A DNA stretch of 32,000 bases from contig NC_010814.1 of assembly GCF_000020385.1 (NCBI RefSeq), positions 3,600,001-3,632,000 of the forward strand, given 5' to 3'. The position numbers and the translations under genes are program-made. Positions 14,315 through 32,000 of the stretch are shown here, one piece after another. How positions within the stretch are numbered: the stretch's first letter is position 1; each line of letters opens with the position of its first letter. The notes under the pieces were generated by a model. The model saw only the letters and a list, made by a program, of their open reading frames with translations, did not search any database and had not been told where the DNA came from. The stretch comes from Trichlorobacter lovleyi SZ. GTDB lineage: Bacteria > Desulfobacterota > Desulfuromonadia > Geobacterales > Pseudopelobacteraceae.

Positions 14315-16105
14315 TCAGTGTCTGGACCGTTCAGACCAGACCTGCGTAAAGGCCGCCTCAAGATCCCGGGTAAACGCAACCGTATCGCAGATCGGCGATG
14401 CTGCCATCTGCTGCCGCAGACGGCTTCGCAGGGTAGACAGACCGGCCAGATTACTGCCCCAGGCAAGCGCTGTAGCAACATAGGCATCCTCACTGGCAAC
14501 GATCCAGTCTGCCACCCCCGCCTGCGTGAGATGACTCTCGGCATGGCGCACAAAAGGCGGCCGCTTGCCGCGTAACACCAGGGTCGGCACCCCCATCCAG
14601 AGTGCCTCAAGAACGGTCACCCCCCCTTGATAGGGAACCGGATCCAATGCGATATCAACCTGATGATAGGCTGCCAACAGCTCTCTACGGGGGGCATACC
14701 CCTCCAGCAGGATCCGGTCTGACGACACCCCTTCAGCTGCCAGTTTTTCCCAATAAGCGCTGCGGACCAAGGGGTCATCAAATCCCTTTGACTTCAGGAA
14801 CAGCCGCGATCCGGGCAGGGCACGCAGCACCGCCCCCCAGAGCGCAAGGGTGCTGCTGTTTAGCTTTTGCACTGTATTGAATGACCCAAAGGTGATGCAT
14901 CCGGTTGTCAGTGCAGGCAAGCTCCCTACCAGCGGCGCATCCGCAGGGGGTCGGAAGCTGACATAGCCGTGGGGCAGGTAGAGCGGGCGTTCCGTATAGT
15001 ACGGGCGATCTTCCGGCGGTAATGCCACCTGATCGGCAAGGATATGATCCATCGCCTCCAGGCCGGTACTCCCCGGATAGCCTCCCCAGGTGATCTGCAG
15101 CGGGGCCAGTCTCCGGGCAAAGAGGTCAAGGTAATTCCCCCCGGTATGGCCCGCCATGTCTACCGCAATATCGAGCTGCCAGGCGCGGATCTGGCGTACG
15201 ATCTCCAGGCGGTCAGTGCCATGCAGCACAACCCAATGTTCTGCTGAGCGTTTCAGGGCCGCAGTCAGCTCATCCCGCTCTGTATAGGGTGAAAAAACCA
15301 CGATCTCAAAGCGATTCCGGTCATGGGCCGGAATCACCCCTTCCAGAAAATAACCCACGGGATGGGCGTACAGATCGGCAGAGAGATAGCCGATCCTGAT
15401 CCGCTTACGTGTACCAGGGCTCAAGGGTGGCGCCGGTGCTGTCTCAATCCGGCATGTTTCCTCAAACCGGCGATGCATGCCGGCGATGAATTCACCGCTT
15501 AGACTATGGAGCTGTTTTGCCACCCTGCTGATCCGCACGGCCAGTCCCGGAACTGCTGCACACATGTCCAGTTCCCGGGCAACAACCTGCGGCGCAATGG
15601 TACGAACCATCAGCAAGGTATAGAGCAAATTACTGACAGTGGCCCGGGCGTGCCGGTCAAGCTCCACTGAGAGGCCATACCAGAGCAGGGCCGCTTCTGC
15701 CTCACCGGCCATGACCAGGGCATTCCCCAGACCGGACAACAATCCGGGATTGACAGGGTCGGCAGCAACCGACCGGCGCAGGGCCGTCACGGCAGCAACA
15801 TACCGTTTGCCCTGCTCCAGCATCCTGGCATAGCCGAGCGCCCCGTTTGCATAGCCCGGCATCTCCTCAAACAGACCACGGTACGCCGTCTCAGCCTCAG
15901 CATAACGGCCAAGCTTTTCAAACAGCCAGGCACAGTTGTTTTGCAGGGTATATTCGTGCGGACAGGCAGCAAGCAGCTCCTGAAAAATGTCCAGAGCCTG
16001 CTGATAGTTGCCGCTGGAGACGAGGGAGGTCGCCTGGGCAAAACGTTTCTCAAGCAGGGCTGCTGCCCCTGCAAACAGGGGAGAGCAAGAATCGCTTGCA
16101 TTCAC
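14315..16105 (-). CDS. TPR-repeat protein with C-terminal GT41 (OGT / SPINDLY-type) glycosyltransferase domain; candidate flagellin glycosyltransferase (FlmG-like architecture)
   Basis: The track ORF starts at GTG 16123. The in-frame GTG at 16105 is preceded by AAGGAG plus 8 nt and makes a GTGA overlap with the upstream stop, so I prefer it. The N-terminal ~230 aa are TPR-like. The C-terminal half carries IRIGYLSADLYAHPVGYF, DMAGHTGGN, APLQITWGGYPGSTGL, ITFGSFN and VDIALDPVPYQGGVTVLEALWMGVPTL, typical of COG3914/GT41. Confidence 0.8.
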   Translation of the reverse strand: MNASDSCSPLFAGAAALLEKRFAQATSLVSSGNYQQALDIFQELLAACPHEYTLQNNCAWLFEKLGRYAEAETAYRGLFEEMPGYANGALGYARMLEQGKRYVAAVTALRRSVAADPVNPGLLSGLGNALVMAGEAEAALLWYGLSVELDRHARATVSNLLYTLLMVRTIAPQVVARELDMCAAVPGLAVRISRVAKQLHSLSGEFIAGMHRRFEETCRIETAPAPPLSPGTRKRIRIGYLSADLYAHPVGYFLEGVIPAHDRNRFEIVVFSPYTERDELTAALKRSAEHWVVLHGTDRLEIVRQIRAWQLDIAVDMAGHTGGNYLDLFARRLAPLQITWGGYPGSTGLEAMDHILADQVALPPEDRPYYTERPLYLPHGYVSFRPPADAPLVGSLPALTTGCITFGSFNTVQKLNSSTLALWGAVLRALPGSRLFLKSKGFDDPLVRSAYWEKLAAEGVSSDRILLEGYAPRRELLAAYHQVDIALDPVPYQGGVTVLEALWMGVPTLVLRGKRPPFVRHAESHLTQAGVADWIVASEDAYVATALAWGSNLAGLSTLRSRLRQQMAASPICDTVAFTRDLEAAFTQVWSERSRH

Positions 16106-18105
16106 CGGCTGTTCTCCTTGCACCAGCGTTGCCAGATCTGACGGTAGACTCCCTCCAGATGGCAGGTGAAGGTACTATTATCAGCAAGGGGCGAAGCCAG
16201 CAGCCGGTCCCGCAAAGAGCTCCTTAGCGCTGCCAAACGGACGGTGTCAGCGGCAAGGGCAACGGCAAGAGAACAATACTCTTCCGGCGAATTACCAATC
16301 AGTTCAGGCAGTCCAACGCTGTGCAGCAGACTGACGCCGACCCGCGAAACATGGCTGTCGCCAGCCCTGGTCACCACCGGCACCCCCATACAGAGCGCTT
16401 CACAGGTAGTGGTGGTACCATGATAGGGAAAGGTATCCAATGCAATATCAATGGTATGGTACCCCTCAAGGTTTTCCACCACGGACCGGGCATGCCCCAA
16501 TACAGAAATCCGCTCCGGAGCAACCTGATGCCGCAGGAAGAGCGGGGCAATATCACGCACAAAACGATCGTGGGAAAGCCCCCTGGCCCTGAAAACAAGG
16601 TGGGAATCAGGAACTTTGGCAAGTATCCGTGCCCAAAGGTCAAGGATGTCAGGCGTCACTTTCTTGAAGTTACTGAAAGAGCCAAAGGTGACATACCCGT
16701 TTGTCTGACAAGGCAATGATCCCACAGCCGGAAAATCAGCTCCGGGACGATAGCAGAGAAAGCTGTCCGGCAGACGGATCAGCTCTTCGGTGTGAAACGG
16801 ATCGGTCACGCCCGGAGGGTCGGCCCAGGCATCACTGATCCGGTAATCCATCTCCATCAGACCGGTACTGTTTGGATAGCCGATCCAGCTGACCTGCAGC
16901 GGTGCCGCCCGCCCGGCAAACAACGGCAGGCGGTTCAGGGCGGTATGCCCTGCCAGATCCACCAGTACGTCAATCTGATCCTGCAGAAGCAGTTCCTGCA
17001 CCGACGCATCATCCATTGCCGAACAATCACGCCAGATCACGTGGTGCTGTTCTTTCAGCTGGCGTGTCACAACATCGGGCTTTTTAACATCCGAGTAGCA
17101 ATAGACTGTTACCTGAGCTGGATCGTGAGCAGCCAGAACCGGCTGGAGAAAGAATACGACGGCATGAATCTTCAGGTCGGGAGAGAGGTAGGCAACCCTG
17201 ATCGGGCGGTCAGGATCAGGATCGTTGGCAAAATGTTTCATTGCCACAGGCTCAAAATACTGTTGGCCCCAGTTTTTATGCTCTGCAGCTATGGCTGCTG
17301 CCGACCAGTTGGCTGAATAATGCAACATAAACAGACGTGTGCTGGCCAAGGCACGCTTCTGGAAGAGATGGTTTGAACTCGCAATGGCCAGGTCAAAGCA
17401 GGCAATCGCATCATCAACCATCCAGAGCTCACTCAGGCAATTGGCAGTGCTGCCAAGCAGTTCGGCCCGTTCATCCGGCCTTACAAGCTCCAGCACCCGC
17501 TGATAGCAGGCCAGAGACTCCTCGAACCGGAACATCTTCCCGTACACTATTGCCAGATTCCCGATCAAGGCAACATTGTCTGAATCAAGGTGAAGACCAT
17601 GGCGGCAGGAGTGGAGCGCTCCATCATTGTCATCGCTTGCCAGACAGACGGCTGTCAGGTTGATCCACGAATTGAGATGCTGCGGATCAATCGCAAGCGC
17701 CTGCTCAAACGCATGCCTGGCCGGCTCCATGCGCTCGAGCCGCTGCAACAGGACCCCTCGGTTGTAATAAAGGTTTACGGTTGTTTCACCAAGTGCCTCA
17801 GCTTCGTCAAAAGCGGCCAACGCCTCTTCAAAGCACCCCAGTTCCTGCAGAGCCAGTGCCAGGTTTATCCGTAAAAAGCCAATCTCAAGAGCCAGATTAC
17901 AGGCCTGCCGGTACAATATGGCTGCCTCATCCCAGGAGCCTGTGGCATACATGATCGTTGCCAGCATGAAGGTAGCCTCAAGGTTACCACTGTCCAGCTG
18001 CAGGATTCTGCGGCAGATCAGCGCTGCTTCTTCATGGAATCCCTGACGGTTCAGGGTCTCTGCTTGATCAAGCGAACACAGTATATCCGGTTGCATCTGC
18101 TCCAC
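16102..18105 (-). CDS. TPR-repeat protein with C-terminal GT41 (OGT / SPINDLY-type) glycosyltransferase domain; paralog of 14315..16105
   Basis: 667-aa ORF starting at GTG 18105, with GGAGG (18116-18120, minus strand) about 10 nt upstream. The N-terminal ~300 aa are TPRs. The C-terminal half has IRVAYLSPDLKIHAVVFF, DLAGHTALN, APLQVSWIGYPNSTGL, VTFGSFS and IDIALDTFPYHGTTTTCEALCMGVPVV, collinear with the downstream paralog. Confidence 0.8.
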   Translation of the reverse strand: MEQMQPDILCSLDQAETLNRQGFHEEAALICRRILQLDSGNLEATFMLATIMYATGSWDEAAILYRQACNLALEIGFLRINLALALQELGCFEEALAAFDEAEALGETTVNLYYNRGVLLQRLERMEPARHAFEQALAIDPQHLNSWINLTAVCLASDDNDGALHSCRHGLHLDSDNVALIGNLAIVYGKMFRFEESLACYQRVLELVRPDERAELLGSTANCLSELWMVDDAIACFDLAIASSNHLFQKRALASTRLFMLHYSANWSAAAIAAEHKNWGQQYFEPVAMKHFANDPDPDRPIRVAYLSPDLKIHAVVFFLQPVLAAHDPAQVTVYCYSDVKKPDVVTRQLKEQHHVIWRDCSAMDDASVQELLLQDQIDVLVDLAGHTALNRLPLFAGRAAPLQVSWIGYPNSTGLMEMDYRISDAWADPPGVTDPFHTEELIRLPDSFLCYRPGADFPAVGSLPCQTNGYVTFGSFSNFKKVTPDILDLWARILAKVPDSHLVFRARGLSHDRFVRDIAPLFLRHQVAPERISVLGHARSVVENLEGYHTIDIALDTFPYHGTTTTCEALCMGVPVVTRAGDSHVSRVGVSLLHSVGLPELIGNSPEEYCSLAVALAADTVRLAALRSSLRDRLLASPLADNSTFTCHLEGVYRQIWQRWCKENSR

Positions 18106-18313: not shown

Positions 18314-19141
18314 ATGGCTATCGGCGATATTTCGCTCACGTCCGGTATGCGGAGCAACCTGCTTTCACTGCAAGGGACCGCAAAATCAATCGACCAGACC
18401 CAAAACCGGCTTTCAAGCGGCAAACGGGTAAACACACCACTGGACAATCCGACCAACTACTTTGCAGCCCAAGGGCACGTAGAACGCGCCTCTGACCTGG
18501 CTGTACGCAAAGATGGCATGGCAGAGGCGATCCAGATGGTCAAGGCAGCCGACACCGGCATCAAGGGAATCACCTCACTGATCGAATCAGCCAAAGGGGT
18601 GGCCACGGCAGCGCTTGCCACCAGTGACACAAATGAACGTTCAACCTATTCTGCCACTTTTAACACCCTGCTCAATCAGGTCTCCATGATGGCCAGCGAC
18701 TCCGGCTATCGCGGTATCAACCTGCTGACCAACGGTTCACAAACCGTTGAATTCGGACAGCGCACCAATGCGTCCACCCTGCAGATCACCGGTTTCAACG
18801 CCACTGCTGCCGGTCTGACCATGCAATCGGCCGTTGCCACGGCCTGGTCTGCATCAGGTAATTCAGCCATCAACTCATCCTCTTCCGAGCTTGAGTCCGC
18901 CCTGAGCTTTCTGCGTACCAAATCTTCAGCCCTGTCGGCTAACCTGAGTGCGGTAACCACCCGTCAGGACTTCACCAACTCCATGATTAACAATCTGCAG
19001 ACCGGTGCTGATAACCTGACCCTGGCCGATACCAACGAAGAAGGCGCCAACATGCTGATGCTACAGACCCGTCAGAACCTTGGCATTACCTCTTTGAGCA
19101 TGGCCTCGCAAGCGGCCCAGGCGGTTCTGAAGCTATTTTAA
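18314..19141 (+). CDS. fliC: Flagellin (short, 275 aa, Caulobacter/Geobacter-type lacking a large variable domain)
   Basis: RBS AAGGAGG 6 nt upstream of the ATG. Conserved flagellin N-terminus (SLTSGMRSNLLSLQ, RLSSGKRVN.PLDNPTNYF) and C-terminus (TRQDFTNSMINNLQTGADNLTLADTNEEGANMLMLQTRQNLGITSLSMASQAAQAVLKLF). Confidence 0.95.
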   Translation: MAIGDISLTSGMRSNLLSLQGTAKSIDQTQNRLSSGKRVNTPLDNPTNYFAAQGHVERASDLAVRKDGMAEAIQMVKAADTGIKGITSLIESAKGVATAALATSDTNERSTYSATFNTLLNQVSMMASDSGYRGINLLTNGSQTVEFGQRTNASTLQITGFNATAAGLTMQSAVATAWSASGNSAINSSSSELESALSFLRTKSSALSANLSAVTTRQDFTNSMINNLQTGADNLTLADTNEEGANMLMLQTRQNLGITSLSMASQAAQAVLKLF

Positions 19142-19177
19142 CCGCCCCATAAAAACAGGATAACAAATATTTTTAAT

Positions 19178-19215
19178 TTTTTTACTCAAGGAGTTGCGCC
19201 TGCTGTCCGATGAAG
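19178..19215 (+). promoter_or_regulatory. Sigma-28 (FliA)-like promoter of flagellin gene 2
   Basis: TTTTTTTACTCAA-N16-TCCGATGAA. TCAA at 19187-19190 and TCCGA at 19207-19211. Same architecture as the promoter at 18182-18218. Confidence 0.55.
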
Positions 19216-19276
19216 TATACTAAGTGGCAACAAAGCGGCAAGAATGCCGTGATAAAATCCAGAAAGGAGCATCACC

Positions 19277-20104
19277 ATGGCTATCAACGACATCTCCCTC
19301 ACCTCCGGCATGAGGAGCAACCTGCTTTCACTGCAAGGCACCTCAAAACTGATTGACCAGACCCAGACCCGCCTCTCTTCAGGCAAAAAGGTTAACACCC
19401 CGCTGGATAACCCGACCAACTATTTTGCAGCACAAGGACATATGGAGCGGGCTGCTGACCTTTCCGTACGTAAAGACGGTATGGCTGAAGCAATTTCCAT
19501 GGTTAAGGCCGCCGATACCGGTATCAAGGCCATTACCTCCCTGATTGAAGCCGCAAAAGGTGTCGCCGGTGCTGCATTGGCAACCAGTGACGCTGCTGAG
19601 CGTTCCACCTACACCACCACCTTCAACACCCTGCTCAGCCAGGTATCGCAGCTTGCTTCCGACTCCGGCTACCGGGGCACCAACCTGCTGACTGCCGGTT
19701 CACAAACCGTTGAATTCGGTCAGCGGACCAACGCTGCTACCCTGCAGATCAGCGGCTTCAGCGCTACTGCAACCGGCCTGACCATCCAGTCTGCTGTTGC
19801 AACTGCCTGGTCAGCATCAGGTAACTCAGCCATCAACTCATCCTCTTCCGAGCTTGAGTCCGCACTGAGCTTCCTGCGTGCCAAGTCTTCATCGCTGTCT
19901 GCAAACCTGAGCGTTGTTACCACCCGTCAGGACTTCACCAACTCCATGATCAACACCCTGCAGACCGGTGCTGACAACCTGACCCTGGCCGATACCAACG
20001 AAGAAGGCGCTAACATGCTGATGCTGCAGACCCGTCAGAACCTGGGCATCACCTCCTTGAGCATGGCTTCCCAGTCAGCTCAGGCAGTTCTGAGACTGTT
20101 CTAA
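19277..20104 (+). CDS. fliC: Flagellin (275 aa), tandem paralog of 18314..19141
   Basis: RBS AAAGGAG upstream. About 32 substitutions out of 275 aa versus the upstream copy by my hand alignment. Same conserved flagellin termini. Confidence 0.95.
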   Translation: MAINDISLTSGMRSNLLSLQGTSKLIDQTQTRLSSGKKVNTPLDNPTNYFAAQGHMERAADLSVRKDGMAEAISMVKAADTGIKAITSLIEAAKGVAGAALATSDAAERSTYTTTFNTLLSQVSQLASDSGYRGTNLLTAGSQTVEFGQRTNAATLQISGFSATATGLTIQSAVATAWSASGNSAINSSSSELESALSFLRAKSSSLSANLSVVTTRQDFTNSMINTLQTGADNLTLADTNEEGANMLMLQTRQNLGITSLSMASQSAQAVLRLF

Positions 20105-20858: not shown

Positions 20859-21278
20859 ATGTCACTAAAAATACGTTTAAAACCACTGGAAAAGATGCTG
20901 ATCGGTAACGCAGTGATTACCAACGGGGACAGAACCACCGAGTTTTTCATTGAAAACAAGGTGCCGATCCTGCGCGAAAAAGAGCTTATGAAAGAAGACG
21001 CCGCCTCGACGCCGGGGCGGCGAATCTACTTTCTGGTTCAGCTGATGTACGTCGATGAAGAGAATTTTGAAACCTATCATAATCAGTTTTGGGAGATTGT
21101 GCGTCAGGTGATTCTGGCAGCTCCGAGCACGACACCGATTATCACCGATATTTGCCATGAGATCATGAACCGCCGCTACTATCAGGCCCTGAAGGAGGCA
21201 CGCCACCTGGTGGATTACGAGCAGGAACTGGTTGATTCCGCAACAGTTCCTGAAGCTGAGGCATCCGCAATGGCCTGA
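20859..21278 (+). CDS. flbT: Flagellar biosynthesis repressor FlbT (post-transcriptional regulator of flagellin synthesis)
   Basis: 139 aa. MSLKIRLKPLEKMLIGNAVITNGDRTTEFFIENKVPILREKELM....TPGRRIYFLVQLMY...YYQALKEARHLVDYEQEL is collinear with the FlbT family as I recall it from Caulobacter (MPLKLSLKPGEKFVLNGAVVQNGDR...LREKDIM...TP.R.IYF...MMY). Confidence 0.85.
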   Translation: MSLKIRLKPLEKMLIGNAVITNGDRTTEFFIENKVPILREKELMKEDAASTPGRRIYFLVQLMYVDEENFETYHNQFWEIVRQVILAAPSTTPIITDICHEIMNRRYYQALKEARHLVDYEQELVDSATVPEAEASAMA

Positions 21279-24200
21279 GCAACGGCTGCAAGCTCCGGGG
21301 AGTTCCCCTGCTGTTGCAACAGGCTGCACCGCACACCACAGAACAGCTGCCTGCAATCCGTTCCGGCTGCCCGTAACTGGCGTAGCAGCTGCCGCCCTTC
21401 TGCCGGATTACCGATACGATAGAGCGCCAGAACGGCAAGTCCCAGCAATACCGGATTGCCGGGACAGCACTGCTGAGCCTGCATCGCGTACCGATACGCC
21501 TCATCTCCCGTATACAGGCAGGTTTCACAGATCGTCTTGTTAACCAGTGCATCGGTAAAGGCTGGATCAATGGCCAGCGCATGCGTGCTGGCATCCACGG
21601 CCTCCCGCAGCTTTCCCTGACGCAATAGCACATACCCCAGATTGAACCATCCTTTTGCTAAATCCGGCTGTTGACTGAGCAGCCTGATCCAAAGCTGTTC
21701 GGCAGTTACGTACTGCTCCAGTTCTGCAGCCTGTACCGCCAGCTCATAGAGGGCCTTGGGATCATCCGGCTGCTCTGCAAGTTTTTTTAATCCCAATGCC
21801 AGGTACTGTTCCTGTTTTGTCTTGTTTTTCTGTTGTTGCAGGGTTCCATAGTGGTGTACCGGCACCGGATGCTGTACCACGGAAAGCCCGGCCTGTTGCG
21901 CGGTTTCCTCAACCATTTCATGGATGGCTCCCCTGAACCTGATATCATGCTGATTCGGAAAAAGCCGGACCTTGTCGCTGGGCGTCCAGCCCGCCCCGGC
22001 TTCGTTTTCCGGATACTCGCCACGACACGCTACAAATCCCTCCAGCCCTGTGCTGAGCGTATAGTTACGGGTCGTCAGACTATATGACTGCCTTGGCGAT
22101 GCTGCAGCCAAAACATCTCTGAAGAGCTGATAATCCCGTACCGAGATCTGTTCATCGGCATCCATCACCAAAATCCAGTCAGCAGTGGCCAGCTCGATTG
22201 AGCGGTTCCTGGCCGCTGAAAAATCATGCTGCCACGCCTGATCCACAACCAGGGCGCCGAACAGCCCGGCAATCTGCCTGGTTCGGTCGGATGAACCGGT
22301 ATCAACAACTATCATTTCATGCACCAGCGGCTTGCACGACGCCAGACAGCGGGCAAGCTGCCGTTCTTCATCCTTCACAATCATGCACAGCGCAACTGAC
22401 CTGCCCGGTTGGGCAGCTACGTGATATGGTCCACTGAGGTGTCGCTGTTTCATGCCGGCCTGCAAGACGCGGTCATCAGGTCCGAATTGATCCAGAAAGG
22501 CCTCTGCCCAGACAAGGCTAGTTTCGCTGCTGTTCTCAAGATCAGCCAGTTCAATCCGCAACCGGGCCAGTCCACGGCTGTGAGGGTACAACCGAAACGC
22601 CTCATCGGCATACTGCGCCAGGCCTGCTCCACCCTGCCGGCGGCCCAGTTCCAGCAGGGCGTCTTGCAGCTCCAGCCGCCACGGCTCCAGTATAAACCCT
22701 TTCAACAGCAGTGCGTCCGCGTACTCCTCGCATCCCTCAGCCCGGGCCAGCTCCACCTGCTGCAATACCGGACAGGTATGATTCGCGCTCGATATAGCCC
22801 GTTCCAGCAGCTCCGCCAGCAACGGCACACCGGGGTGTTCAATGACGGCCTGACGCAGCAGGACGAGGGCCTCATCAATCCGCTCATCCAGCAGCAGCTG
22901 TTCACCCTGCTCAAGCAGACGGCAGACCGCAATCCGTCTGCCCAGATCCGGATCAGTGACCGGCCTGCTCCATTTTTCATGGAAAAGCGCAGCATTACGA
23001 ACCAGAGCAGGTCTGTAGTCAATCCGGTTGCCCTTGAATGTCATGCTGCCATGATGGTGGATATAGACATCTGAGGCCACAAGGTTCTGACGCCCCGCCA
23101 CTGCGGCCCGTATACAGAAGTCATCATCTTCGTAGTTTCCGCTGCCGAACTGCTCATCCAGCAGGCCGATCTCTTCCATGAGTGTCCGATGAAACAGCAT
23201 GCAGAAACCGACAATCCGGCGGGACCGGACCCGGCGGAAGCGGTTACGGATTCTGAATTCAGCGGCAAAGCCATCCAGCCCGCCGGCAGCGGTATAGTCC
23301 GGCAAGGGCAGCACCTGAATACCGCTGGCGCTGTTGCTCAACGGCCCCGCGATCCCTGTACGGGGATGCGAGATATGGCATTCGAGCAGGCCGGAAAGCC
23401 ACTCAGACGTAACAACCACATCATTATTTAGCAGCACGAGGTACTCACCGCGGGCCAGTTGCAGTCCCTGGTTGCAGCCGGCGGCATAGCCGAGGTTCCG
23501 GTCGTTCAGGATCAGATGACAATCGGCATCAGCAGCGCTCAGCTCCTGCAGCCGTGTCCTGGTACCATCGCTGGAGCCATTATCAACGAAAATCAACTCA
23601 TGGGGTTCTGGGGTGTGCTGCCTGATCGAGGCAAGACATTGTTCGGTACAGGCCCACTGATTAAAGGTCAGGATAATGATGGAAACCAGCGGCCTGCCGT
23701 TGCCGGCAACCGGCATTTCCCAGGCGCGGGGCAGGTTGAGCACCCTGTCAAACCTGACAGTCTGGTTGTAGTCCGGTCTGGAAGGGGTAAACCAGTCAAT
23801 CCCCCACAGTTCCATTGGCGCTGGAACCCGGCCCGCGCCATAGTGGGCTGCCAGAATCCGGTACAAGGCATCGCTGCTTTCCTGTACCAGCCGGCCGGTA
23901 GTCGTAACCGGGGCGCTCTTGAAGCTGTGCTGCCCCTCGTGCCAGACAAAGGTGTCAGCTGCTATCATCAGGCGGTAGCCATGCAGCCGCAGCCGCCAGG
24001 ACAGCTCAAGGTCATCGTTGCCCAGAAAAAGCCGTTCATCCAGCCCGCCCAGCCGATGGAGCAGTTCCAGGCGGATCATCAGACAAAAACCGATCAGCAG
24101 CCTGGTCTTTTCCGACCGGCCCTGATTCATCCGGCACAGCAGTTCCGCTGCCTGCTCGGGGTCAATCCCGTGCGGCAGCTCCCCCTGCCAGTGACAGGCC

Positions 24201-25522
24201 ACTGATTGCCGTCCTGCAGCAAAGTTTGAGACCGGCCCCACCGCGGCAACGGAACGGTCTTCAAAAGGGCGTGCAAGCCGGTCGAGCCAGCCGGCTGTTA
24301 CCACGGTATCAGGGTTCAGCAGCACCACAAAGGGAGTAGCAGCCAGCCTGATCCCCTGGTTGGATGCCACCGAAAACCCACGATTCGACGTATTTTTGAT
24401 CAGTTGCAGCGGCAGTCCGGATTGCAGCTTCTGCACCAGAGCGCAGGTAGTATCCTGCGAAAGGTTATCGACGACAATCACCTGATCACCGGGCCGCATG
24501 GTTCGCGCCAGACTTTCCAGGCAGGCCACAATGGTCTTTGAGGAATTGTAGGTTACCACAACGATGGTTGCCGCCTGATCGCCGGGCTGTGGCGCATCAA
24601 TCCAGCCCAGAATCTGTGCCCCCCATTTTTCAAAAAACAGCGTACGGTTCCGTTGCCAGGCTTGCTCAAAACGTGCCGCCTGTCCGGCTGTCCTCTGCTG
24701 CAAGCCGGTCACAAGCGGATCATCAGCGGCAAGGGTGACCCCCTTCTGTTGCAAAACCCCCAGATAGCGTTCCAGGACCAAGGCTTCGGCCTTCAAGGTA
24801 CCGCCCTGGTGATGGATCAGCGGACTCTCCGGGCAGACCCATGCAAGCAACCCCTGTGACCGGAATGCCAGACAGAGATCATCATCCTCCCAACCGTTTT
24901 CATAGCGTTCATCAAAGGGGCCAAAGCTGAAAAACTGTTCACGGCGCAGCAGTATGCATGCCCCGGTAACTGTCAGAAACGCCCCCCCGCCCTGCACATC
25001 TGACAGGTCGGCCGGTTGCCCATAGCGATAATGTTCGCTGCAGGGCAGCCCATCGGCAGCCACGCTCCAACGCTTGCCACAGTGTTGAATGGTGCCATTG
25101 GGAAACAGGAGACGCGGTGCCACGATACCAATCTCCGGTCGCTGCTGCAGCACCCTGACAAGGGGCTCACACCATCCTGCTGCCTGGGCCTCAATGTCAT
25201 TGTTCATAAACAGCAGCAACGTTCCGCGTGCCTCGCGGGCTCCGCAGTTACAGGCCCGGGCAAAACTGTGCGGTGCCTGGTTGCTGATCAGCCTGATCCG
25301 TAGTTCAGCAGGATAAAGCTGCGACAAGGCCACGACCGTCTCATCACTGGAACCGTCGTCAACAACAATAATCTCAAAAGGGAGAGCAGGAGGAAAGCAG
25401 AGGAGAGACGAAATACAGGCACGGGTCAGATGCCACTGGTTGTGAACCGGAATGATGATGGAAAGCGCTGGGCCAGTCAAGGAGGCATGAGCCGCCTTGA
25501 CTGGTGTTTCTTCAGCAGACAT
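21215..25522 (-). CDS. Giant multidomain glycosyltransferase: four GT2 (GT-A) domains, a helical linker and C-terminal TPR repeats
   Basis: 1435-aa ORF. GT2-1 spans aa ~20-240 (LSIIIPVHNQ, IIVVDDGSSDET, FMNNDIE, ENGWEDDDLC). GT2-2 spans aa ~318-535 (IVVVTYNS, VIVVDNLSQDTT, LLNPDTVV, LGNDDLELSWR). GT2-3 spans aa ~612-830 (VSIIILTFNQ, LIFVDNGSSDGT, LLNNDVVV, GNYEDDDFC). GT2-4 spans aa ~1042-1230 (VALCMIVKDEE, MIVVDTGSSDRT, LVMDADEQI). TPRs span aa ~1240-1400. The ATG lies 5 nt after the stop of the upstream TPR gene. Confidence 0.85.
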   Translation of the reverse strand: MSAEETPVKAAHASLTGPALSIIIPVHNQWHLTRACISSLLCFPPALPFEIIVVDDGSSDETVVALSQLYPAELRIRLISNQAPHSFARACNCGAREARGTLLLFMNNDIEAQAAGWCEPLVRVLQQRPEIGIVAPRLLFPNGTIQHCGKRWSVAADGLPCSEHYRYGQPADLSDVQGGGAFLTVTGACILLRREQFFSFGPFDERYENGWEDDDLCLAFRSQGLLAWVCPESPLIHHQGGTLKAEALVLERYLGVLQQKGVTLAADDPLVTGLQQRTAGQAARFEQAWQRNRTLFFEKWGAQILGWIDAPQPGDQAATIVVVTYNSSKTIVACLESLARTMRPGDQVIVVDNLSQDTTCALVQKLQSGLPLQLIKNTSNRGFSVASNQGIRLAATPFVVLLNPDTVVTAGWLDRLARPFEDRSVAAVGPVSNFAAGRQSVACHWQGELPHGIDPEQAAELLCRMNQGRSEKTRLLIGFCLMIRLELLHRLGGLDERLFLGNDDLELSWRLRLHGYRLMIAADTFVWHEGQHSFKSAPVTTTGRLVQESSDALYRILAAHYGAGRVPAPMELWGIDWFTPSRPDYNQTVRFDRVLNLPRAWEMPVAGNGRPLVSIIILTFNQWACTEQCLASIRQHTPEPHELIFVDNGSSDGTRTRLQELSAADADCHLILNDRNLGYAAGCNQGLQLARGEYLVLLNNDVVVTSEWLSGLLECHISHPRTGIAGPLSNSASGIQVLPLPDYTAAGGLDGFAAEFRIRNRFRRVRSRRIVGFCMLFHRTLMEEIGLLDEQFGSGNYEDDDFCIRAAVAGRQNLVASDVYIHHHGSMTFKGNRIDYRPALVRNAALFHEKWSRPVTDPDLGRRIAVCRLLEQGEQLLLDERIDEALVLLRQAVIEHPGVPLLAELLERAISSANHTCPVLQQVELARAEGCEEYADALLLKGFILEPWRLELQDALLELGRRQGGAGLAQYADEAFRLYPHSRGLARLRIELADLENSSETSLVWAEAFLDQFGPDDRVLQAGMKQRHLSGPYHVAAQPGRSVALCMIVKDEERQLARCLASCKPLVHEMIVVDTGSSDRTRQIAGLFGALVVDQAWQHDFSAARNRSIELATADWILVMDADEQISVRDYQLFRDVLAAASPRQSYSLTTRNYTLSTGLEGFVACRGEYPENEAGAGWTPSDKVRLFPNQHDIRFRGAIHEMVEETAQQAGLSVVQHPVPVHHYGTLQQQKNKTKQEQYLALGLKKLAEQPDDPKALYELAVQAAELEQYVTAEQLWIRLLSQQPDLAKGWFNLGYVLLRQGKLREAVDASTHALAIDPAFTDALVNKTICETCLYTGDEAYRYAMQAQQCCPGNPVLLGLAVLALYRIGNPAEGRQLLRQLRAAGTDCRQLFCGVRCSLLQQQGNSPELAAVAQAIADASASGTVAESTSSCS

Positions 25523-26454: not shown

Positions 26455-26521
26455 ATCTCCTTAGCTCACGATCTAATATTCGAACGAGTAATTCTACCCA
26501 TATCAGTCAAAGATGCAATGA

Positions 26522-28531
26522 TTATTGCGCTGTCGTGCTGTCTCTACGAGCCATATAGCGGGCAATCCGCTCCAGTCGCTGTTGATAGCGTTGTTGGTAA
26601 CTCTCAAATATCTCAGCAATCTCCGGATCAGCAATGTGGCGCTTATTGGAGATTCCTTCCGGAGTATACCAATAAAGGCCTGTTATTATTGGTATATGCA
26701 ACAACTGAAACCGCTCGGCAATCCGTAGCCACATCTCCTGATCACCGATGGCAAGATACTTTTCATTAAAGTAGCCAACGTAGTCATGCACCTGTCGTCG
26801 CCACATCGGATGGGGACCGACACAACAATTTTCGATATGATGCTCAAAGGAATACGGTGGCCAAGCAAACTGGCCACAGCGATCATGCCGGGCAAAGGTC
26901 TGATGGGGGTACAGCGTCAGCCAGGTGTCACCATAGACCAGCATCACTTCAGGATTTTCATCCAGCGCCTTTTTCAATAACTCACAGGCGGTGGGCGCCA
27001 AACGGTCATTCGTGCTGAACGAAAGCAGGTAACTCCCTTGCGCGGCCTTGATGGCCACGTTCCAGGCGGCATAAATACCAATTCTCTCGGAAGTTCGTAT
27101 ATATTTAATGTTTCGGTGTTTCCCCTGAAATTCTTCAATAATTATCCGCTCATTTTCCGGCGAGGCAGCATCCACGACAACCACTTCTATCTGCTCGAAG
27201 ATCGTCTGGGCAACCAGGTCTTCCAGACACTCCCGCATGAACGCCTCTGAGGCATAGGTGGTAACAATCACCGATACGACAGGCTTAACCTCCTGCTGCA
27301 TAGCAAAACTCTTCTGCATTGATGATATTGCCGGGTTATGCAACTCCGAAACAAGCGAAAGTAGCGGAGTAATGGTCTTGTCAAGATTCAGATGATTTGC
27401 AAAAAATTGTTCGGCATTCAAACCGCTTTGTTCAAGATCAGATCGACTCAGGTTAGCTAACACCCGCCCTGTATCGGTCACGCTGCCAACAACCCAGCCC
27501 AACCCAAACTGACGGACATGTCTGCTCATTTCTCCGATCTCGTTTACCACTATTGGCAGACCATATTGGAGGTAGGTTGCAATCTTGCCAGATGCAAGCC
27601 CTATATGTTCCAAGTTCTTACCATCAATTGGATGGTCTTTATGGTAATAGGGTGTATAAAAAGCGCAGCCAGCATCGCATGCCTGAATAAGTTCGCCGAG
27701 CTCCGAAAACTCCAGGGGGCCAAATGGCGAGACTAACAATCGGTTATGCGGAAAACTTGCAACTACATCAAATACATCAGACGGATAACAGCCATAACGG
27801 TGGTGAATCAGCAGCGACCAGTCATCCGGCCAGGTGTGAAGACTGCGTAACAACTCGTGAATACCGGTCCATATAGCTGTGATTTCACCCATATACAACA
27901 GTATCTTTTGTTTTTGTGGCAACGAAAAATGGTGATGGATACGATAATTTCTACTGATGTGCTTAACACCACGACCGGCAACTGGGATTTTTACGATTCG
28001 TTCAAGCGGGATGCCATTTTCCAAAGACAAATCAGCAGCACGCAGGTCATCCTGGGCAATTGCAAACAGCAGATTTCGTGAGGCCTCAATCTCCATCTGT
28101 TTCTGCCAGGAGGAAACCACATCAGCAAAATAGAGTTCATATGATATCAATGCATGTGGAACACCCTGCTGTGCGGCAACAAGCGCAGCTTCAACTATTC
28201 CCAGATCAACGCCAATAATCAGCGTATATAGCGGCAGCTCTTTTGTAATATAATTTTGCAGTGTCCCAGAATTTTCAATGCATCCGGGGGGAAGCAAAAA
28301 GAAGAAGTCAGCAGGATAACCGGTACGGCCTTGGCGAGGAATACTGATAAAAGTAGCCAAACTGTGGGGTGTACTCGCTGGTATTCCAGGTTCACCAGGG
28401 CTATAGATATCAACCAGATAGCCGTTATTGCACAGAATATCCACCATACCCCAAAGATTAGGATTGTTAGAAATGTTACCTTCGGGATGAATGAGCATGA
28501 TACGTGCTCTGTCAGCACTGGCTACTCTCAT
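26522..28531 (-). CDS. Bifunctional glycosyltransferase: N-terminal GT-B-like domain + C-terminal GT2 domain
   Basis: The track ORF starts at 28555. ATG 28531 forms an ATGA overlap with the upstream stop and is preferred. The C-terminal ~250 aa are GT2 ([42 protein letters not shown]). The N-terminal ~400 aa are GT-B-like ([24 protein letters not shown]). Confidence 0.8.
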
Positions 28532-29277
28532 GAACAGACCACCAAGGCATTCCAAGTATCAAAACCAAGTGGTCTAGCGGTAAGCCACTCTTCAGCCCGC
28601 ACCACCTCAAAACCAGCCTCCTGCAACATCAAGGAAAGTTCCGGCAGATACAGATAGCGCATTCGATGTGTTTCCCTCACCTCCTGGACTTCTTTGGTCA
28701 GCAGATTCCTTGCAAAAAGATGATAGTTTACATCAACCAGATTCTGATTGGGATGCATGACGGGGCTGGCTATCCGGGTTATGCTGATTGTATCATCGAC
28801 AAGCTCTTTTACCCGCACAGCAGGCCTGTCAGTCAGAACTGCGGGGCCATACCAACAGTCAAAGATAAAAATCCCACCAGACTTAAGGTGTTGTCGAGCC
28901 GTGCCAAATGCAGCCATCAAATCAGCGTTTTCAGCTTGGTAGCTCATGACGTGAAACAAGGAGATAATCACGTCAAAGGTCATGTCCAGACGAACCGTGC
29001 GCACATCATCCTGCACATAACGAACAGCAGCATATCCCTCTGCCGCTTGACGTGCAGCAGCCAGCATATCTTCTGAAAGATCAACACCGGTCATGGCATA
29101 GCCCTTCTCTGACAGGAGCCGGTCATGCCTGCCTGAACCACAACCCAGGTTCAAAATCGAATGTGCTGCTGGACAATGTTGCTGTAGTATATCGTGAATA
29201 TATGCGACTTCAGCAGCATAGTCTTTATCGCGATACAGCAAATCATAGTATCGGGCATACTCACCAAAAAGACTCAT
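28528..29277 (-). CDS. Class I SAM-dependent methyltransferase, TylM1/DesVI-like (candidate amino-sugar N-methyltransferase)
   Basis: 249 aa. [21 protein letters not shown]...[11 protein letters not shown]...[13 protein letters not shown]...DDVR...[13 protein letters not shown]...[16 protein letters not shown] is collinear with my recollection of TylM1 (YDLVHQGKGKDY..EA...LLDVACGTGMH...GLELSADML..AR...GDMR...FSAVTCMFSSIGH...DGVVVVEPWWFP). ATGA overlap with the upstream aminotransferase gene. Confidence 0.7.
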
Positions 29278-30380
29278 TTCAGACTCTCCCGAACAGTAGT
29301 AGTTACAGAAACTATCTGTTCATCGGTTATGGTCAAACCGCTGGGAAGATACACCCCCTGCCGAGCCAGCCGGTCTGCCACCGGAAACTGTTCACCCTGG
29401 AAAAGACCCATTTTCTGGAAAACCGGCTGCTGATGCATGCCAAGAAAAAAAGGACGCGTTTCAATATGCGCTTCGCGCAAGCGGTCTGCCAACATTATGG
29501 CCGTCACCCCCGTGCTCTCACCGACGACAACGCCCAATACCCAATAGACACTCTTGGCCCACGCCTCTTCGACCTGCATGCGTATCCCTGCAACATCCCG
29601 TAACTGCTCGGCATAAGCGGCAGCAATGGCCCTTTTACGGGCCACGATTCCATCCATCCGATCAATCTGTCCGACCCCCAGTGCCGCCTGGATATTCGTC
29701 ATTCTATAATTATAACCCAGTTCATCATGCAAAAAACGCTGCTGCTTCTGAAAACAGAGATTCCGCAGACTCCGTGCCCGCTCAGCATGTTCCGGTGTAC
29801 GCACCAGCACCATCCCGCCCTCGCCGGTAGTCACCAGCTTGTTGGCATAAAAACTGAAAGTACTGATATCCGCCAGGCCACCGCAGCGGCGTCCCTTGTA
29901 TTCCGCCCCGTGCACTTCAGCGGCATCTTCAATGACCGTTAGATGGTGCCTGCGGGCAACGTCCGTAATCAAATCCATATCAGCAGGATGACCGTAGATA
30001 TGTACTACAAGGATAGCCTTTGTTCTTGGGCCTATCTTTGCCTCTATCTGACCTGCATCCATCTGCCAGTTGTGCGGCTCACTGTCCACAAGCACAGGAA
30101 CACCACCTGCGCGTACTATCGACTGGGCAGGAGAGATAATGGTGAAGGTTGGCATAATAACTTCATCGCCCGGCTGAAGATTGAGCAGTCCAACCGCCAG
30201 ATCCAGCGCAACAGAACCATTACTGACGGCGATACCAAACGGCATGCCACAATAAGCAGCCCAGCGCTGTTCAAACAGATCCAGATACATGCCCGCCGAT
30301 GATATCCAGCCTGACTTCAGTGCATCATTTACCAGGGCAATGTCACGTTCCGTTATACACGGTTCAGAAACTGGAAGCAT
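29274..30380 (-). CDS. DegT/DnrJ/EryC1/StrS-family PLP-dependent sugar-nucleotide aminotransferase (perosamine-synthase-like by motif)
   Basis: The ATG at 30380 overlaps the upstream TGA by 1 nt (TGATG); the track used the TTG at 30383. Motifs: SEPCITERD, SGWISS, VSNGSVAL, GDEVIMPTFT, VHIYGHP, the active-site Lys context FSFYANKLVTTGEGGM, YNYRMTNIQAALGVGQ and ETRPFF. Confidence 0.9.
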   Translation of the reverse strand: MLPVSEPCITERDIALVNDALKSGWISSAGMYLDLFEQRWAAYCGMPFGIAVSNGSVALDLAVGLLNLQPGDEVIMPTFTIISPAQSIVRAGGVPVLVDSEPHNWQMDAGQIEAKIGPRTKAILVVHIYGHPADMDLITDVARRHHLTVIEDAAEVHGAEYKGRRCGGLADISTFSFYANKLVTTGEGGMVLVRTPEHAERARSLRNLCFQKQQRFLHDELGYNYRMTNIQAALGVGQIDRMDGIVARKRAIAAAYAEQLRDVAGIRMQVEEAWAKSVYWVLGVVVGESTGVTAIMLADRLREAHIETRPFFLGMHQQPVFQKMGLFQGEQFPVADRLARQGVYLPSGLTITDEQIVSVTTTVRESLK

Positions 30381-30826
30381 CAAAAGCGCTCCTTCTCTAC
30401 CAAGCCGGTATAGGGCCCCTGCTTCAGTTCAAAAAAAATCGTATCCTCAAGACATTTCAGGCGATGACCGCCAGAGACCAGCAGGATGATATCACCCTCT
30501 TCAAGGTTCCAGATCCCAATCAGGCACTTATCCAATCCATACAGTTCCACCTCCGCCCTGCCCTTACGAATAAGCAATGTTTCCGGAGTACCCACCAGAT
30601 GGCGTTGCAGCGGTAGATGGGTATGCCGGGCAACCACGCCATCCTTTGGGTAGACCACAAAGCCGGCTTGCTGATAATAGCTGTCCGGGGAGATGAAAGT
30701 CGTGGTTTCCGGCATATAATCCTTACGGATAATGGTAGCAATATGCTGGTCGTGCCAGACAACATGCTCCACAAGATGGGATGGAGTGTATTCTTCTGAA
30801 ATGATTTGATCAGCTTCTGTTGGCAT
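30380..30826 (-). CDS. Cupin-fold protein, candidate NDP-sugar ketoisomerase/epimerase (specific activity not assignable)
   Basis: 148-aa ORF with GAGGAA upstream of the ATG. It has an HxH cupin motif (GVVARHTH) and a second motif EGDIILLVSGGH. It sits between methyltransferase and aminotransferase genes with overlapping stops and starts. Confidence 0.55.
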   Translation of the reverse strand: MPTEADQIISEEYTPSHLVEHVVWHDQHIATIIRKDYMPETTTFISPDSYYQQAGFVVYPKDGVVARHTHLPLQRHLVGTPETLLIRKGRAEVELYGLDKCLIGIWNLEEGDIILLVSGGHRLKCLEDTIFFELKQGPYTGLVEKERF

Positions 30827-31985
30827 AGGTTCCTCTATATGGGGTCCACATGGTATACAACCTGTCTTGAGGTCGCAGACGATCTAAAACCTTCTGGAGC
30901 ATTTTTTGCCGATGATAGCGGTACATTGCACAAATGATATAGATACATGTGTTCTTTGGCGTGAAGGTGTCCCACGCTTGCACCTTGATGCCGTTAATCA
31001 GAGACTGATGTTTATGGGGGTAATCATCAATCAGGGACTTACAGCTTGCTTCCCACTGCCCCTCCCATATTTGTTGCAGAACGCCACTGACCGCAAGAAA
31101 CACATTGCTTGCCCCATAGAAGCAGAGTTCAGCCCCCTGCTCGGTCAATTCCCGCCATTCTTGCTGGCTCAACACGACTTTTTCACTAAAAGCCCGGATT
31201 CTCTCCAGCCTATCCGACCAGCCTGTCCCCATCAGGCAGGTCCCACCTTTTTTTTTCCGGTAAAGAACTGTCAATTGGTATCCGCGATCAATGGCAACCA
31301 GCTGCAATCCCGCCTGTTCTCCCAGTAGTGCCAATGATTTCCCGGAGTAGTGCCCGACATGTTCCATCACCCATGGATCGATCCCTTCATCAAGATCGTT
31401 CTCCAGGTCCGGGACCTCCACCATCAGCAGGCCGTCTTCACGTAGAAAAGTAGCAATATGCTGCAAAAATGCCTGTGGGTAGAGCATGTGTTCCAGAACC
31501 TGCCGGGCAACTAACAAGTCAAAACTGGATGAAAGCTGAATCTGGCGAACATCTCCAAAAATGGTTGGTATCCCCACAAACGGCAAAGGCGAGCTTTCCA
31601 CCCCAAGCAGCTGAAGATCTGGGTAAAATGACTGAAGACCTGCCAGAAAGTCCCCCCTGTTCGAGCCCACCTCAACTACATGGCGAATCTGCGACCAGTC
31701 GCAATGCAGATCAAGAAAAGCCTTGGACATCTCTGCACGTGGATCTACCAGAGGAAATTCGTGTAGATCAGCACTCAGTAGCTGGTAAGCGTCATAGGCG
31801 GGGGCCATCCAGGTCTCGAATTCCCGGGGTTGAGCAAAGGCAGTAGCATTCCAGACAAAATGACAGGCCTCACATCCCTCCATAAAAAGTGGTCGAGTTT
31901 TTTCAGAATACATATGGACACTGCCAAGCTGCAGTTGACGGTCAAATAATGCTACAGCTGCATTTCCACAAATCGGGCAATTCAT
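30810..31985 (-). CDS. Zn-ribbon + class I SAM methyltransferase + C-terminal Rossmann-like domain (TylC3-type NDP-hexose C-methyltransferase-like architecture)
   Basis: 391-aa ORF with AGGA 6 nt upstream of the ATG. N-terminal 4-Cys ribbon (CPIC...CEAC), MTase core (VVEVGSNRGDFL, LVARQVLEHM, GLLMVEVPD) and C-terminal FYGASNVFLAV...LIDDYPHKHQSLINGIKV. This resembles the Methyltransf_13/23/14 arrangement of sugar C-methyltransferases. Confidence 0.55.
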   Translation of the reverse strand: MNCPICGNAAVALFDRQLQLGSVHMYSEKTRPLFMEGCEACHFVWNATAFAQPREFETWMAPAYDAYQLLSADLHEFPLVDPRAEMSKAFLDLHCDWSQIRHVVEVGSNRGDFLAGLQSFYPDLQLLGVESSPLPFVGIPTIFGDVRQIQLSSSFDLLVARQVLEHMLYPQAFLQHIATFLREDGLLMVEVPDLENDLDEGIDPWVMEHVGHYSGKSLALLGEQAGLQLVAIDRGYQLTVLYRKKKGGTCLMGTGWSDRLERIRAFSEKVVLSQQEWRELTEQGAELCFYGASNVFLAVSGVLQQIWEGQWEASCKSLIDDYPHKHQSLINGIKVQAWDTFTPKNTCIYIICAMYRYHRQKMLQKVLDRLRPQDRLYTMWTPYRGTYANRS

Positions 31986-32000
31986 AGCTAGTCCTGTTAT

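Follow-up and report, generated by a model that had tools for sequence, protein, structure and literature searches.

A translationally coupled five-gene cassette in the flagellin glycosylation region of Trichlorobacter lovleyi with predicted roles in branched N-methylamino sugar synthesis and transfer

The 32,000-nucleotide stretch of Trichlorobacter (formerly Geobacter) lovleyi SZ DNA analyzed here, referred to below as the window, covers a region of flagellin glycosylation genes. At its far end, it carries a cassette of five minus-strand genes whose products are identical to ACD97082–ACD97086 of the 3.92-Mb chromosome of this strain: in reading order, a Zn-ribbon methyltransferase, a small cupin, a DegT-family aminotransferase, a second methyltransferase, and a two-domain glycosyltransferase (Table 1). 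With moderate confidence, we read these genes as the final steps in the making of a nucleotide sugar together with its transferase, the product being a C-methyl-4-(methyl)amino-4,6-dideoxyhexose. The cassette varies a known deoxysugar chemistry and does so in an unusual setting, and its cupin is very widespread. An earlier note on this DNA, made from the sequence alone, had proposed a horizontally acquired module for a methylated amino-deoxyhexose of the mycaminose or desosamine type. Its general chemistry, in which an N-methylated and probably C-methylated amino-deoxyhexose is used by a dedicated transferase amid flagellin glycosylation genes, is supported by the gene identifications, all five of which are borne out by fold or by family. 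Other parts of that proposal fare less well, as described below.

The five cassette genes are translationally coupled. Each of the four start/stop overlaps reported earlier can be read directly on the minus strand: 17 nucleotides at 30810–30826 between the Zn-ribbon methyltransferase and the cupin, a TGATG in which the A at 30380 is shared by the cupin and the aminotransferase, an ATGA at 29274–29277 between the aminotransferase and the second methyltransferase, and an ATGA at 28528–28531 between the latter and the glycosyltransferase. The TGATG junction also places the start of the aminotransferase at the ATG at 30380 rather than at the TTG at 30383.

The Zn-ribbon methyltransferase is probably a divergent relative of the TylC3/TcaB9/KijD1 nucleoside diphosphate (NDP)-hexose C-methyltransferases, a kinship that took a family profile and a structure model to reveal; C-methylation itself is predicted. 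When the single sequence was searched against the PDB, TcaB9 and MtmC appeared at non-significant E-values (0.14–0.5), while the family profile (A1) matches MtmC (4rv9) at 2.9e-8 in an alignment that spans the conserved E-H motif. With the AlphaFold model (pLDDT of 88.9, and >90 in the N-terminal region), the top 18 Foldseek matches in the PDB are KijD1, TcaB9, or MtmC only, aligned over their full length (~430 columns) with TM scores of 0.68–0.72 and E-values of 4e-19 to 8e-18. A gap of nine orders of magnitude separates this set from the next matches, which are generic methyltransferases (1e-9, TM score of 0.33). The three domains shared with TcaB9, KijD1, MtmC, and TylC3 are a four-cysteine Zn ribbon, a class I S-adenosylmethionine (SAM) domain, and a C-terminal Rossmann-like domain. 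Among 18 homologues, conservation in the CxxC...CxxC motif (Cys3, Cys6, Cys38, and Cys41) is complete for the second pair and at least 90% for the first, and His165 and Glu207-His208, which align with the 'AHI' and 'HEH' of MtmC, are invariant. The catalytic counterparts of these last residues in TcaB9 are His181, Glu224, and His225. Membership in the TylC3/TcaB9/KijD1 group thus holds by architecture and catalytic residues, although it fails by Pfam criteria. Unlike these enzymes, which belong to antibiotic clusters, the 391-residue family occurs in glycoprotein-type clusters of anaerobes. It is also rare, with 22 matches among 5.8 billion proteins in a word-indexed search (20 at E ≤ 1e-71) and 61 representatives at E ≤ 1e-30 among 1.84 billion in an exhaustive one.

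The aminotransferase has its best PDB match in the Caulobacter guanosine diphosphate (GDP)-perosamine synthase Per (3BN1; 1.3e-79, 271 bits), to which it is 40% identical over 344 residues, end to end. The pyridoxal phosphate (PLP) lysine is aligned between the two, within SFYANKLVTTGEGG in the cassette enzyme and SFFGNKIITTGEGG in perosamine synthase, and the lysine in SFYANKLVTTGEGG aligns with the one changed to alanine in entry 3DR4. In NCBIfam, the highest-ranking family is LegC (317 bits, cut-off of 420), followed by PseC (249 bits, cut-off of 423), and the top matches are all C4 enzymes, whereas the C3 enzymes DesV and QdtB (186 and 161 bits) score ~90–110 bits below perosamine synthase. 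Judged by similarity, the aminotransferase therefore favors C4 amination of a GDP-sugar over a route of the mycaminose or desosamine type, and the analogy with these C3 amino sugars drawn in the earlier note becomes less likely (271 and 317 bits versus 186 and 161). A GDP carrier is favored because of this affinity with perosamine synthase and LegC and because a Gmd-like gene is found near one homologous cassette, at locus L012. Where the cassette would differ from Per and LegC is in its product, which is expected to be N-methylated rather than N-acetylated or otherwise N-acylated, and in its substrate, which has probably been C-methylated beforehand.

For the second methyltransferase, the best solved relatives are DesVI (3BXO, 4.8e-23, residues 6–225), TylM1 (~1e-17), and CalS10 (6e-17), a similarity that points to an amino-sugar N-methyltransferase like DesVI and TylM1. 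These enzymes are of the same size and are alike in the placement of their genes directly after that of an aminotransferase. DesVI and TylM1 act on deoxythymidine diphosphate (dTDP)-linked 3-amino sugars, whereas the substrate expected for the cassette enzyme is a 4-amino sugar, probably GDP-linked. In every related locus examined (L007–L016 and L024–L026), a homologue of this gene lies beside, or within ~1 kb of, an aminotransferase homologue. The name given to the protein by NCBI, 'class I SAM-dependent DNA methyltransferase', is probably wrong. A substrate that is not a nucleotide sugar (flagellin lysines, a lipid, or a peptide amine, for example) is, in our view, very unlikely for either methyltransferase or for both. 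Such a role would fit the generic class I methyltransferase domains that are all Pfam finds in them, the top NCBIfam match of the 249-residue enzyme (a daptide peptide N-methyltransferase, 65 bits against a cut-off of 175), and the Anaerolineae loci in which homologues of the cupin, aminotransferase, and N-methyltransferase, hereafter the trio, adjoin an LPG_synthase_TM membrane protein with no glycosyltransferase beside them. It is, however, hard to reconcile with the full three-domain fold of the Zn-ribbon enzyme, which is common only to NDP-sugar C-methyltransferases, with the almost end-to-end alignment of the 249-residue enzyme with DesVI, and with its coupling to a sugar aminotransferase, a pairing that is kept in all related loci examined.

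The cupin belongs to a family that is related to WbuC and yet distinct from it. Its only family signal is WbuC TIGR04366 (30.9 bits, cut-off of 42; four diverse members score 30.4–31.3 bits), and no Pfam family is matched at E = 10 by four members, so that PF05523 (FdtA) is not matched either. The search for homologues gave 951 matches, those listed being 65–100% identical, and mean column identity is 74% across a family that includes Geobacteraceae, Anaerolineae, Desulfobacteraceae, Fibrobacteria, and Ardenticatenia. His67, His69, His75, and His120 are invariant, an H-x-H motif is present, and the conservation of these histidines suggests a metal site. Sequence searches against the PDB returned generic cupins only, with no assignable activity, as did Foldseek (E of 7e-5 or weaker), in which the match with the highest TM score is the FdtD ketoisomerase domain 4zu4 (TMq of 0.53, E = 8.7e-4, rank 46). 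The earlier caution that the activity of this protein cannot be read from its sequence was justified, in that PDB, Pfam at E = 10, and Foldseek all gave no assignment. The hosts are anaerobes, which speaks against an oxygen-dependent cupin, and an oxygenase role was rejected on that ground. In the contexts examined, most cupin homologues lie beside a perosamine-synthase-like aminotransferase, and the protein probably acts on a keto sugar.

If the cupin were instead a 3,4-ketoisomerase like Tyl1a, FdtA, or QdtA, amination would take place at C3 and the product would be a 3-dimethylamino-3,6-dideoxyhexose, as in the mycaminose and desosamine routes. The order of cupin, aminotransferase, and N-methyltransferase mirrors that of Tyl1a, TylB, and TylM1, and the kinship of the N-methyltransferase with DesVI and TylM1, the FdtD match, and the H-x-H motif can all be read in this way. 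We nevertheless consider this route unlikely, given the scores of the aminotransferase and the missing FdtA match. In addition, orthologous aminotransferase–N-methyltransferase pairs occur without the cupin in four loci (L007, L009, L015, and L016), and, as a matter of chemical reasoning, C3-methylation before isomerization would give a fully substituted C3 that can no longer form a ketone. For the same reasons, namely that the aminotransferases work with or without the cupin, that a C3-methylated carbon cannot become a ketone, and that the aminotransferase resembles C4 enzymes, an epimerase role fits the cupin better than that of a 3,4-ketoisomerase, although it is a best guess.

The last gene of the cassette encodes a fusion of a Gtf3-like GT-B domain (residues ~1–400) and a GT2 domain (~416–614). 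The latter matches PF00535 at 5.8e-19 over residues 428–539 and chondroitin synthase (2z86) at 1e-16. Gtf3_C is weak in the precomputed Pfam results, and a profile of the N-terminal domain (A3) matches the Gtf3 structures 9hu9 and 3qkw at 1e-6 to 7e-5. Streptococcal Gtf3 extends protein O-glycans in the glycosylation of serine-rich-repeat adhesins, and the N-terminal domain matches its nucleotide-sugar-binding end; the match covers only ~70 residues, however, and the cassette domain differs from Gtf3 in being fused to GT2 and in its donor and acceptor. The N-terminal domain is conserved beside the N-methyltransferase in L010, L011, L012, L024, and L026, in each of which a Gtf3_C-type glycosyltransferase lies immediately 3′ of that gene. 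Homology to the sister lineage L024 ends within the transferase gene, at ~27348, which makes the GT2 part a variable add-on.

Taken in this order, the five enzymes would form a simple pathway. Its starting point would be an NDP-4-keto-6-deoxyhexose, most likely GDP-linked, that is made outside the cassette. The TylC3-fold enzyme would methylate the carbon adjoining the keto group (C3 or C5), after which the metal-type cupin may re-shape the sugar, with epimerization as the best guess and the weakest step of the scheme. The perosamine-synthase-like PLP enzyme would then aminate at C4, and the DesVI/TylM1-like enzyme would methylate the new amine once or twice. Finally, the Gtf3-like domain would extend a protein O-glycan with the C-methyl-4-(methyl or dimethyl)amino-4,6-dideoxyhexose, and the acceptor in T. 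lovleyi is probably flagellin. TylC3-type C-methylation, as in TcaB9, proceeds via an enolate and needs a 4-keto group. Because transamination uses up the keto group and N-methylation needs an amine, the only coherent order is C-methyltransferase, aminotransferase, N-methyltransferase, and glycosyltransferase, and this is the order of the genes.

The closest known counterparts of the predicted product are not mycaminose or desosamine but sibirosamine, from sibiromycin, and kansosamine, from the lipooligosaccharide of Mycobacterium kansasii, both of which are 3-C-methyl-4-(methyl)amino-4,6-dideoxyhexoses. Their pathways have the same predicted set and order of a TylC3-type C-methyltransferase, a C4 aminotransferase, an N-methyltransferase, and a dedicated glycosyltransferase. 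They differ in that sibirosamine and kansosamine are made as dTDP-sugars in actinomycetes and go to a small-molecule or glycolipid acceptor, whereas the cassette has a GDP-sugar-like aminotransferase, an anaerobic Desulfuromonadota host, and probably a protein acceptor.

The earlier note treated the five genes as a module in its own right, but they form the 3′ end of a larger conserved block, which extends beyond position 32000 and comprises at least 10 genes. Sequence beyond the window was read from metagenome contigs that are 99.95% identical to it. The order in the block is radical SAM, GT9, methyltransferase, tetratricopeptide repeat (TPR)-glycosyltransferase, Zn-ribbon methyltransferase, (cupin), aminotransferase, N-methyltransferase, and Gtf3-like glycosyltransferase. 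Contexts were compared for eight Zn-ribbon methyltransferase homologues with enough flanking DNA (43–84% protein identity). In all eight (L007, L009, L010, L011, L012, L015, L016, and L024), aminotransferase and N-methyltransferase homologues lie within 5 kb, and all eight share the block, with a methyltransferase and/or B12-radical-SAM gene in position and a glycosyltransferase of ~500 residues before the Zn-ribbon methyltransferase; the 6.8-kb contig of L015 shows no more of the block than its 3′ part. The Gtf3_C-type glycosyltransferase of the block stands either directly after the N-methyltransferase or a few kb before it. In L007, L009, L015, and L016, the cupin is absent and the aminotransferase–N-methyltransferase pair is on the opposite strand, while L013, L014, L025, and L026 have the trio without the C-methyltransferase, the cupin being followed in all four by the aminotransferase and N-methyltransferase homologues. 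There are thus three nested units: the aminotransferase–N-methyltransferase pair, found in every locus examined, the optional cupin and C-methyltransferase, and the large block. At L004:5658–8478, past the end of the window, the radical SAM protein (313 residues), GT9, and methyltransferase (312 residues) are 57–78% identical across hosts, with one value of 49%, and the Zn-ribbon methyltransferase is less conserved (43–63%) than these three upstream proteins.

Outside this block, the trio appears in other company. In Citrifermentans bremense (L013:3424–10278), it lies among genes for NeuB, a cytidine monophosphate (CMP)-transferase, a NeuC-like 2-epimerase, and a Maf-like (MptE-like) protein, and holds the sole aminotransferase of that cluster, which suggests that this species makes an N-methylated nonulosonic acid. 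In two Anaerolineae loci (L014:8001–11655 and L025:10001–13639), the trio is found without a glycosyltransferase, beside an LPG_synthase_TM membrane protein and a MiaB-like radical SAM gene, a context in which the acceptor may not be a protein. The C. bremense cluster raises the question of whether the trio in T. lovleyi also serves the early steps of a legionaminic or pseudaminic type of pathway, its N-methylated 4-amino sugar being condensed later with phosphoenolpyruvate. LegC and then PseC head the NCBIfam ranking of the aminotransferase, and flagellins are classic acceptors of such acids. This route is nonetheless quite unlikely in our estimation: no NeuB, NeuC-like, or CMP-transferase gene is present in the 32-kb window or the next 10 kb, the called-gene loci with close Zn-ribbon methyltransferase homologues list none either, the LegC score of 317 falls below the cut-off of 420, and a dedicated Gtf3-like glycosyltransferase directly follows the N-methyltransferase.

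A number of observations weigh against the pathway to a C-methylated 4-amino sugar on flagellin. At its entry, the genes conserved with the block include neither a dehydratase nor a nucleotidyltransferase, and the dehydratase-like protein in the window (see below) passes no curated cut-off. The Zn-ribbon enzyme is only 17–20% identical to the solved C-methyltransferases, and it matches neither PF08421 (zinc-binding) nor PF08484 (C-terminal) at E ≤ 0.01, only generic methyltransferase domains being found; PF08484 or PF08421 is carried only by the distant relatives P0219 (96 bits to the family profile) and P0022. In the MtmC alignment, moreover, the position of Tyr222 of TcaB9 appears to be Val205 in the cassette enzyme. 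The aminotransferase scores under every curated equivalog cut-off, so that regiochemistry and carrier follow from nearest-neighbor similarity. The cupin, absent from the four loci named above, has no informative relative. In the GT2 domain, residues ~505–510 include S-T-N-D, aligned to the DSDD of chondroitin synthase, where D-x-D or T-D-D is usual, and its activity may be altered accordingly. As for the acceptor, flagellin is suggested only by the T. lovleyi setting, since all other loci are free of flagellin genes within 10 kb of the block. In C. bremense, the trio likewise lies next to genes of flagellin-modification type (Maf-like, NeuB).

The cassette coincides with a step in guanine plus cytosine (GC) content, from 0.567 over positions 1–26454 to 0.492 over 26455–32000, which a one-step likelihood model places at 26410 with a gain of ~54 log-likelihood units over no step. 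GC at third codon positions (GC3) is 0.586–0.747 in the 16 genes before the break and 0.460–0.544 in the five cassette genes, and synonymous codon choice shifts alongside it (ATC from 0.59 to 0.31, GCC from 0.46 to 0.29). The lower-GC segment beginning near 26.5 kb that the earlier note described is therefore real. Seven of its eight hand-counted 60-nucleotide lines reproduce, five inside the cassette (41.7% at 27301, 38.3% at 28201, 35.0% at 29701, 50.0% at 29821, and 46.7% at 31021) and two outside it (60.0% at 5401 and 58.3% at 13021); the eighth, at 26101, is 55.0%, below the 57–60% given for it. GC remains at 0.45–0.55 over at least 10 kb past 32000, so the low-GC stretch is cut by the end of the window. 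Scanning the gap at 26455–26521 revealed no terminator-like or promoter-like site, and promoter and terminator scans in general did not rise above chance and mark no operon ends. An AAGGAG ribosome-binding site precedes the ATG of the TPR gene at 26448. The next two genes past the gap, for this TPR protein and for a 1435-residue protein with four GT2 domains, are co-directional with the cassette. With no terminator in the gap and co-directional neighbors, the step falls within one long co-directional array. The conserved block thus stands in the flagellin glycosylation region as a segment of lower GC3.

The earlier note, which took this segment to be horizontally acquired, overstates the case. 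The GC3 and codon step and the patchy hosts support acquisition; the normal dinucleotide signature, the lack of mobility marks, and an equally low-GC sister lineage do not. We therefore regard a horizontal origin of the cassette as moderately supported and transfer at some time as likely, while a recent transfer of the size of the five genes is unsupported. The rival explanation, that the drop is local compositional variation in a mosaic, weakly expressed glycosylation region and not a trace of transfer, is a serious possibility, albeit one that we think is probably not the case. It would explain why the cassette, at a dinucleotide distance of 34.1 from the remainder of the window, falls in the range of control chunks of equal size (mean of 32.5, maximum of 44.7), why GC dips to 0.51–0.54 around the flagellin genes as well, and why co-directional genes flank the step with no terminator between them. 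Nor were any tRNA genes, integrases, or island borders found, and the repeat search gave chance-level results only, with no flanking repeats. The sister lineage L024, which is 77.6% identical in nucleotide sequence over 8.9 kb, has the same low GC, from which it follows that any acquisition predates that split and is not recent. Local variation does not, however, account for a GC3 step of 10–25 points exactly at a gene boundary or for the occurrence of the block in several phyla. The hosts include Fundidesulfovibrio butyratiphilus and metagenome-assembled genomes labeled 'Deltaproteobacteria' and 'Proteobacteria', on contigs of 26–66% GC, a patchy distribution that requires transfers at some time. 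Among the blocks fetched, the closest one outside Trichlorobacter (L010) has a GC content of 0.455. Gene content at the junction also differs between the sister lineages: in L024 only, a toxin–antitoxin pair (a 76-residue protein and a PIN-domain toxin) and a 1002-residue multi-GT2 gene are inserted (L024:10484–14155) between the cassette glycosyltransferase and the TPR gene, the position of the 26455–26521 gap.

The remainder of the window supplies the setting. Two tandem flagellins, which are 88% identical to one another and contain 31–34% Ser+Thr in residues 100–200, are the presumed glycan acceptors. Directly upstream and adjoining them are both TPR+GT41 proteins, which are candidates for the priming flagellin O-glycosyltransferases. 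The window also encodes several very large multi-domain fusions of glycosyltransferase, methyltransferase, and radical-SAM domains, and the 3′ ends of the 1435-residue GT2 gene and the convergent flbT overlap by 64 nucleotides. The recurrence of B12-radical-SAM genes beside the conserved block (L009, L010, and L012) hints at further C-methylation of the glycan. As for the 4-keto-6-deoxy intermediate, the earlier note had suggested that genes of the RmlA, RmlB, or Gmd type may lie beyond 32000, but none is found in the 10 kb read past the window. A candidate source is the SDR-type protein at 11115–12122, for which NCBIfam gives sub-cut-off scores with dTDP-glucose 4,6-dehydratase (157 bits) and LegB (139 bits); its link to the cassette is one that we infer. 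That this protein is itself a Gmd was ruled out (48 bits against a cut-off of 415). The 26% GC contig of L012 carries, 7 kb downstream of its cassette homologue, a gene for a Gmd-like GDP-mannose 4,6-dehydratase (L012:19594–20586; 363 bits on TIGR01472, cut-off of 415). Flagellar gene regions of Geobacter have been reported to carry differing enzymes where P. carbinolicus has its presumed flagellin-glycosylation enzymes (PMC3543383). Our literature search found no study of the cassette locus or of the cupin–aminotransferase–N-methyltransferase trio.

Table 1. Coordinates of the cassette, the co-directional genes beyond 32000, and other features of the window.
Feature	Length (residues)	Accession	Position	Strand	Basis or remark
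Zn-ribbon methyltransferase	391	ACD97086	30810..31985	-	family profile and structure model
Small cupin	148	ACD97085	30380..30826	-	WbuC-related, sub-threshold
DegT-family PLP sugar aminotransferase	368	ACD97084	29274..30380	-	PF01041 at 1e-110
Class I SAM methyltransferase	249	ACD97083	28528..29277	-	DesVI/TylM1-like
Two-domain glycosyltransferase	669 (ATG at 28531)	ACD97082	26522..28531	-	Gtf3-like GT-B + GT2
Intergenic gap holding the GC step			26455..26521	.	likelihood change point 26410
TPR + TIGR04372-type glycosyltransferase	503		beyond 32000	-	stop 14 nucleotides before Zn-ribbon methyltransferase start
Methyltransferase	312		beyond 32000	-	
GT9	313		beyond 32000	-	
Radical SAM protein	313		beyond 32000	-	
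WbsX + SPASM radical-SAM protein	843		beyond 32000	-	
LIC12162-family protein	673		beyond 32000	-	
Fusion of Glyco_trans_1_2, class I methyltransferase, and B12-binding radical SAM	1288		6301-10167	+	
SDR-type NDP-sugar 4,6-dehydratase/epimerase-like	335	ACD97071	11115..12122	+	PF01370, PF16363
Two TPR+GT41 (OGT-like) proteins			14315-18105	-	
Two tandem flagellins	275 each		18314..20104	+	PF00669
FlbT			20859-21278	+	
Protein with four GT2 domains and TPR repeats	1435		21215-25522	-	

To our knowledge, branched C-methyl N-methylamino sugar chemistry has so far been known almost only from actinomycete antibiotics. A bolder and more doubtful extension of our reading is that the ~10-gene block, with the cassette, is a system for protein O-glycosylation in anaerobes that is horizontally mobile and has not been described before. 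It would build a heavily methylated glycan with a branched-chain (C-methyl) N-methylamino sugar in it, and the cupin would carry out a new metal-dependent step on an NDP-keto-sugar. For public annotation, the analysis corrects the 249-residue DesVI-like enzyme, which is labeled as a DNA methyltransferase, and gives more specific identities to the other cassette proteins, which are only generically named. Targets for enzymology are the divergent branch of the TylC3 fold, the cupin–aminotransferase–N-methyltransferase trio, and the Gtf3-like transferase that travels with them. If the proposed chemistry is correct, branched-chain N-methylamino sugars would not be confined to antibiotic producers but would also decorate the surface proteins, probably flagellin, of environmental anaerobes.

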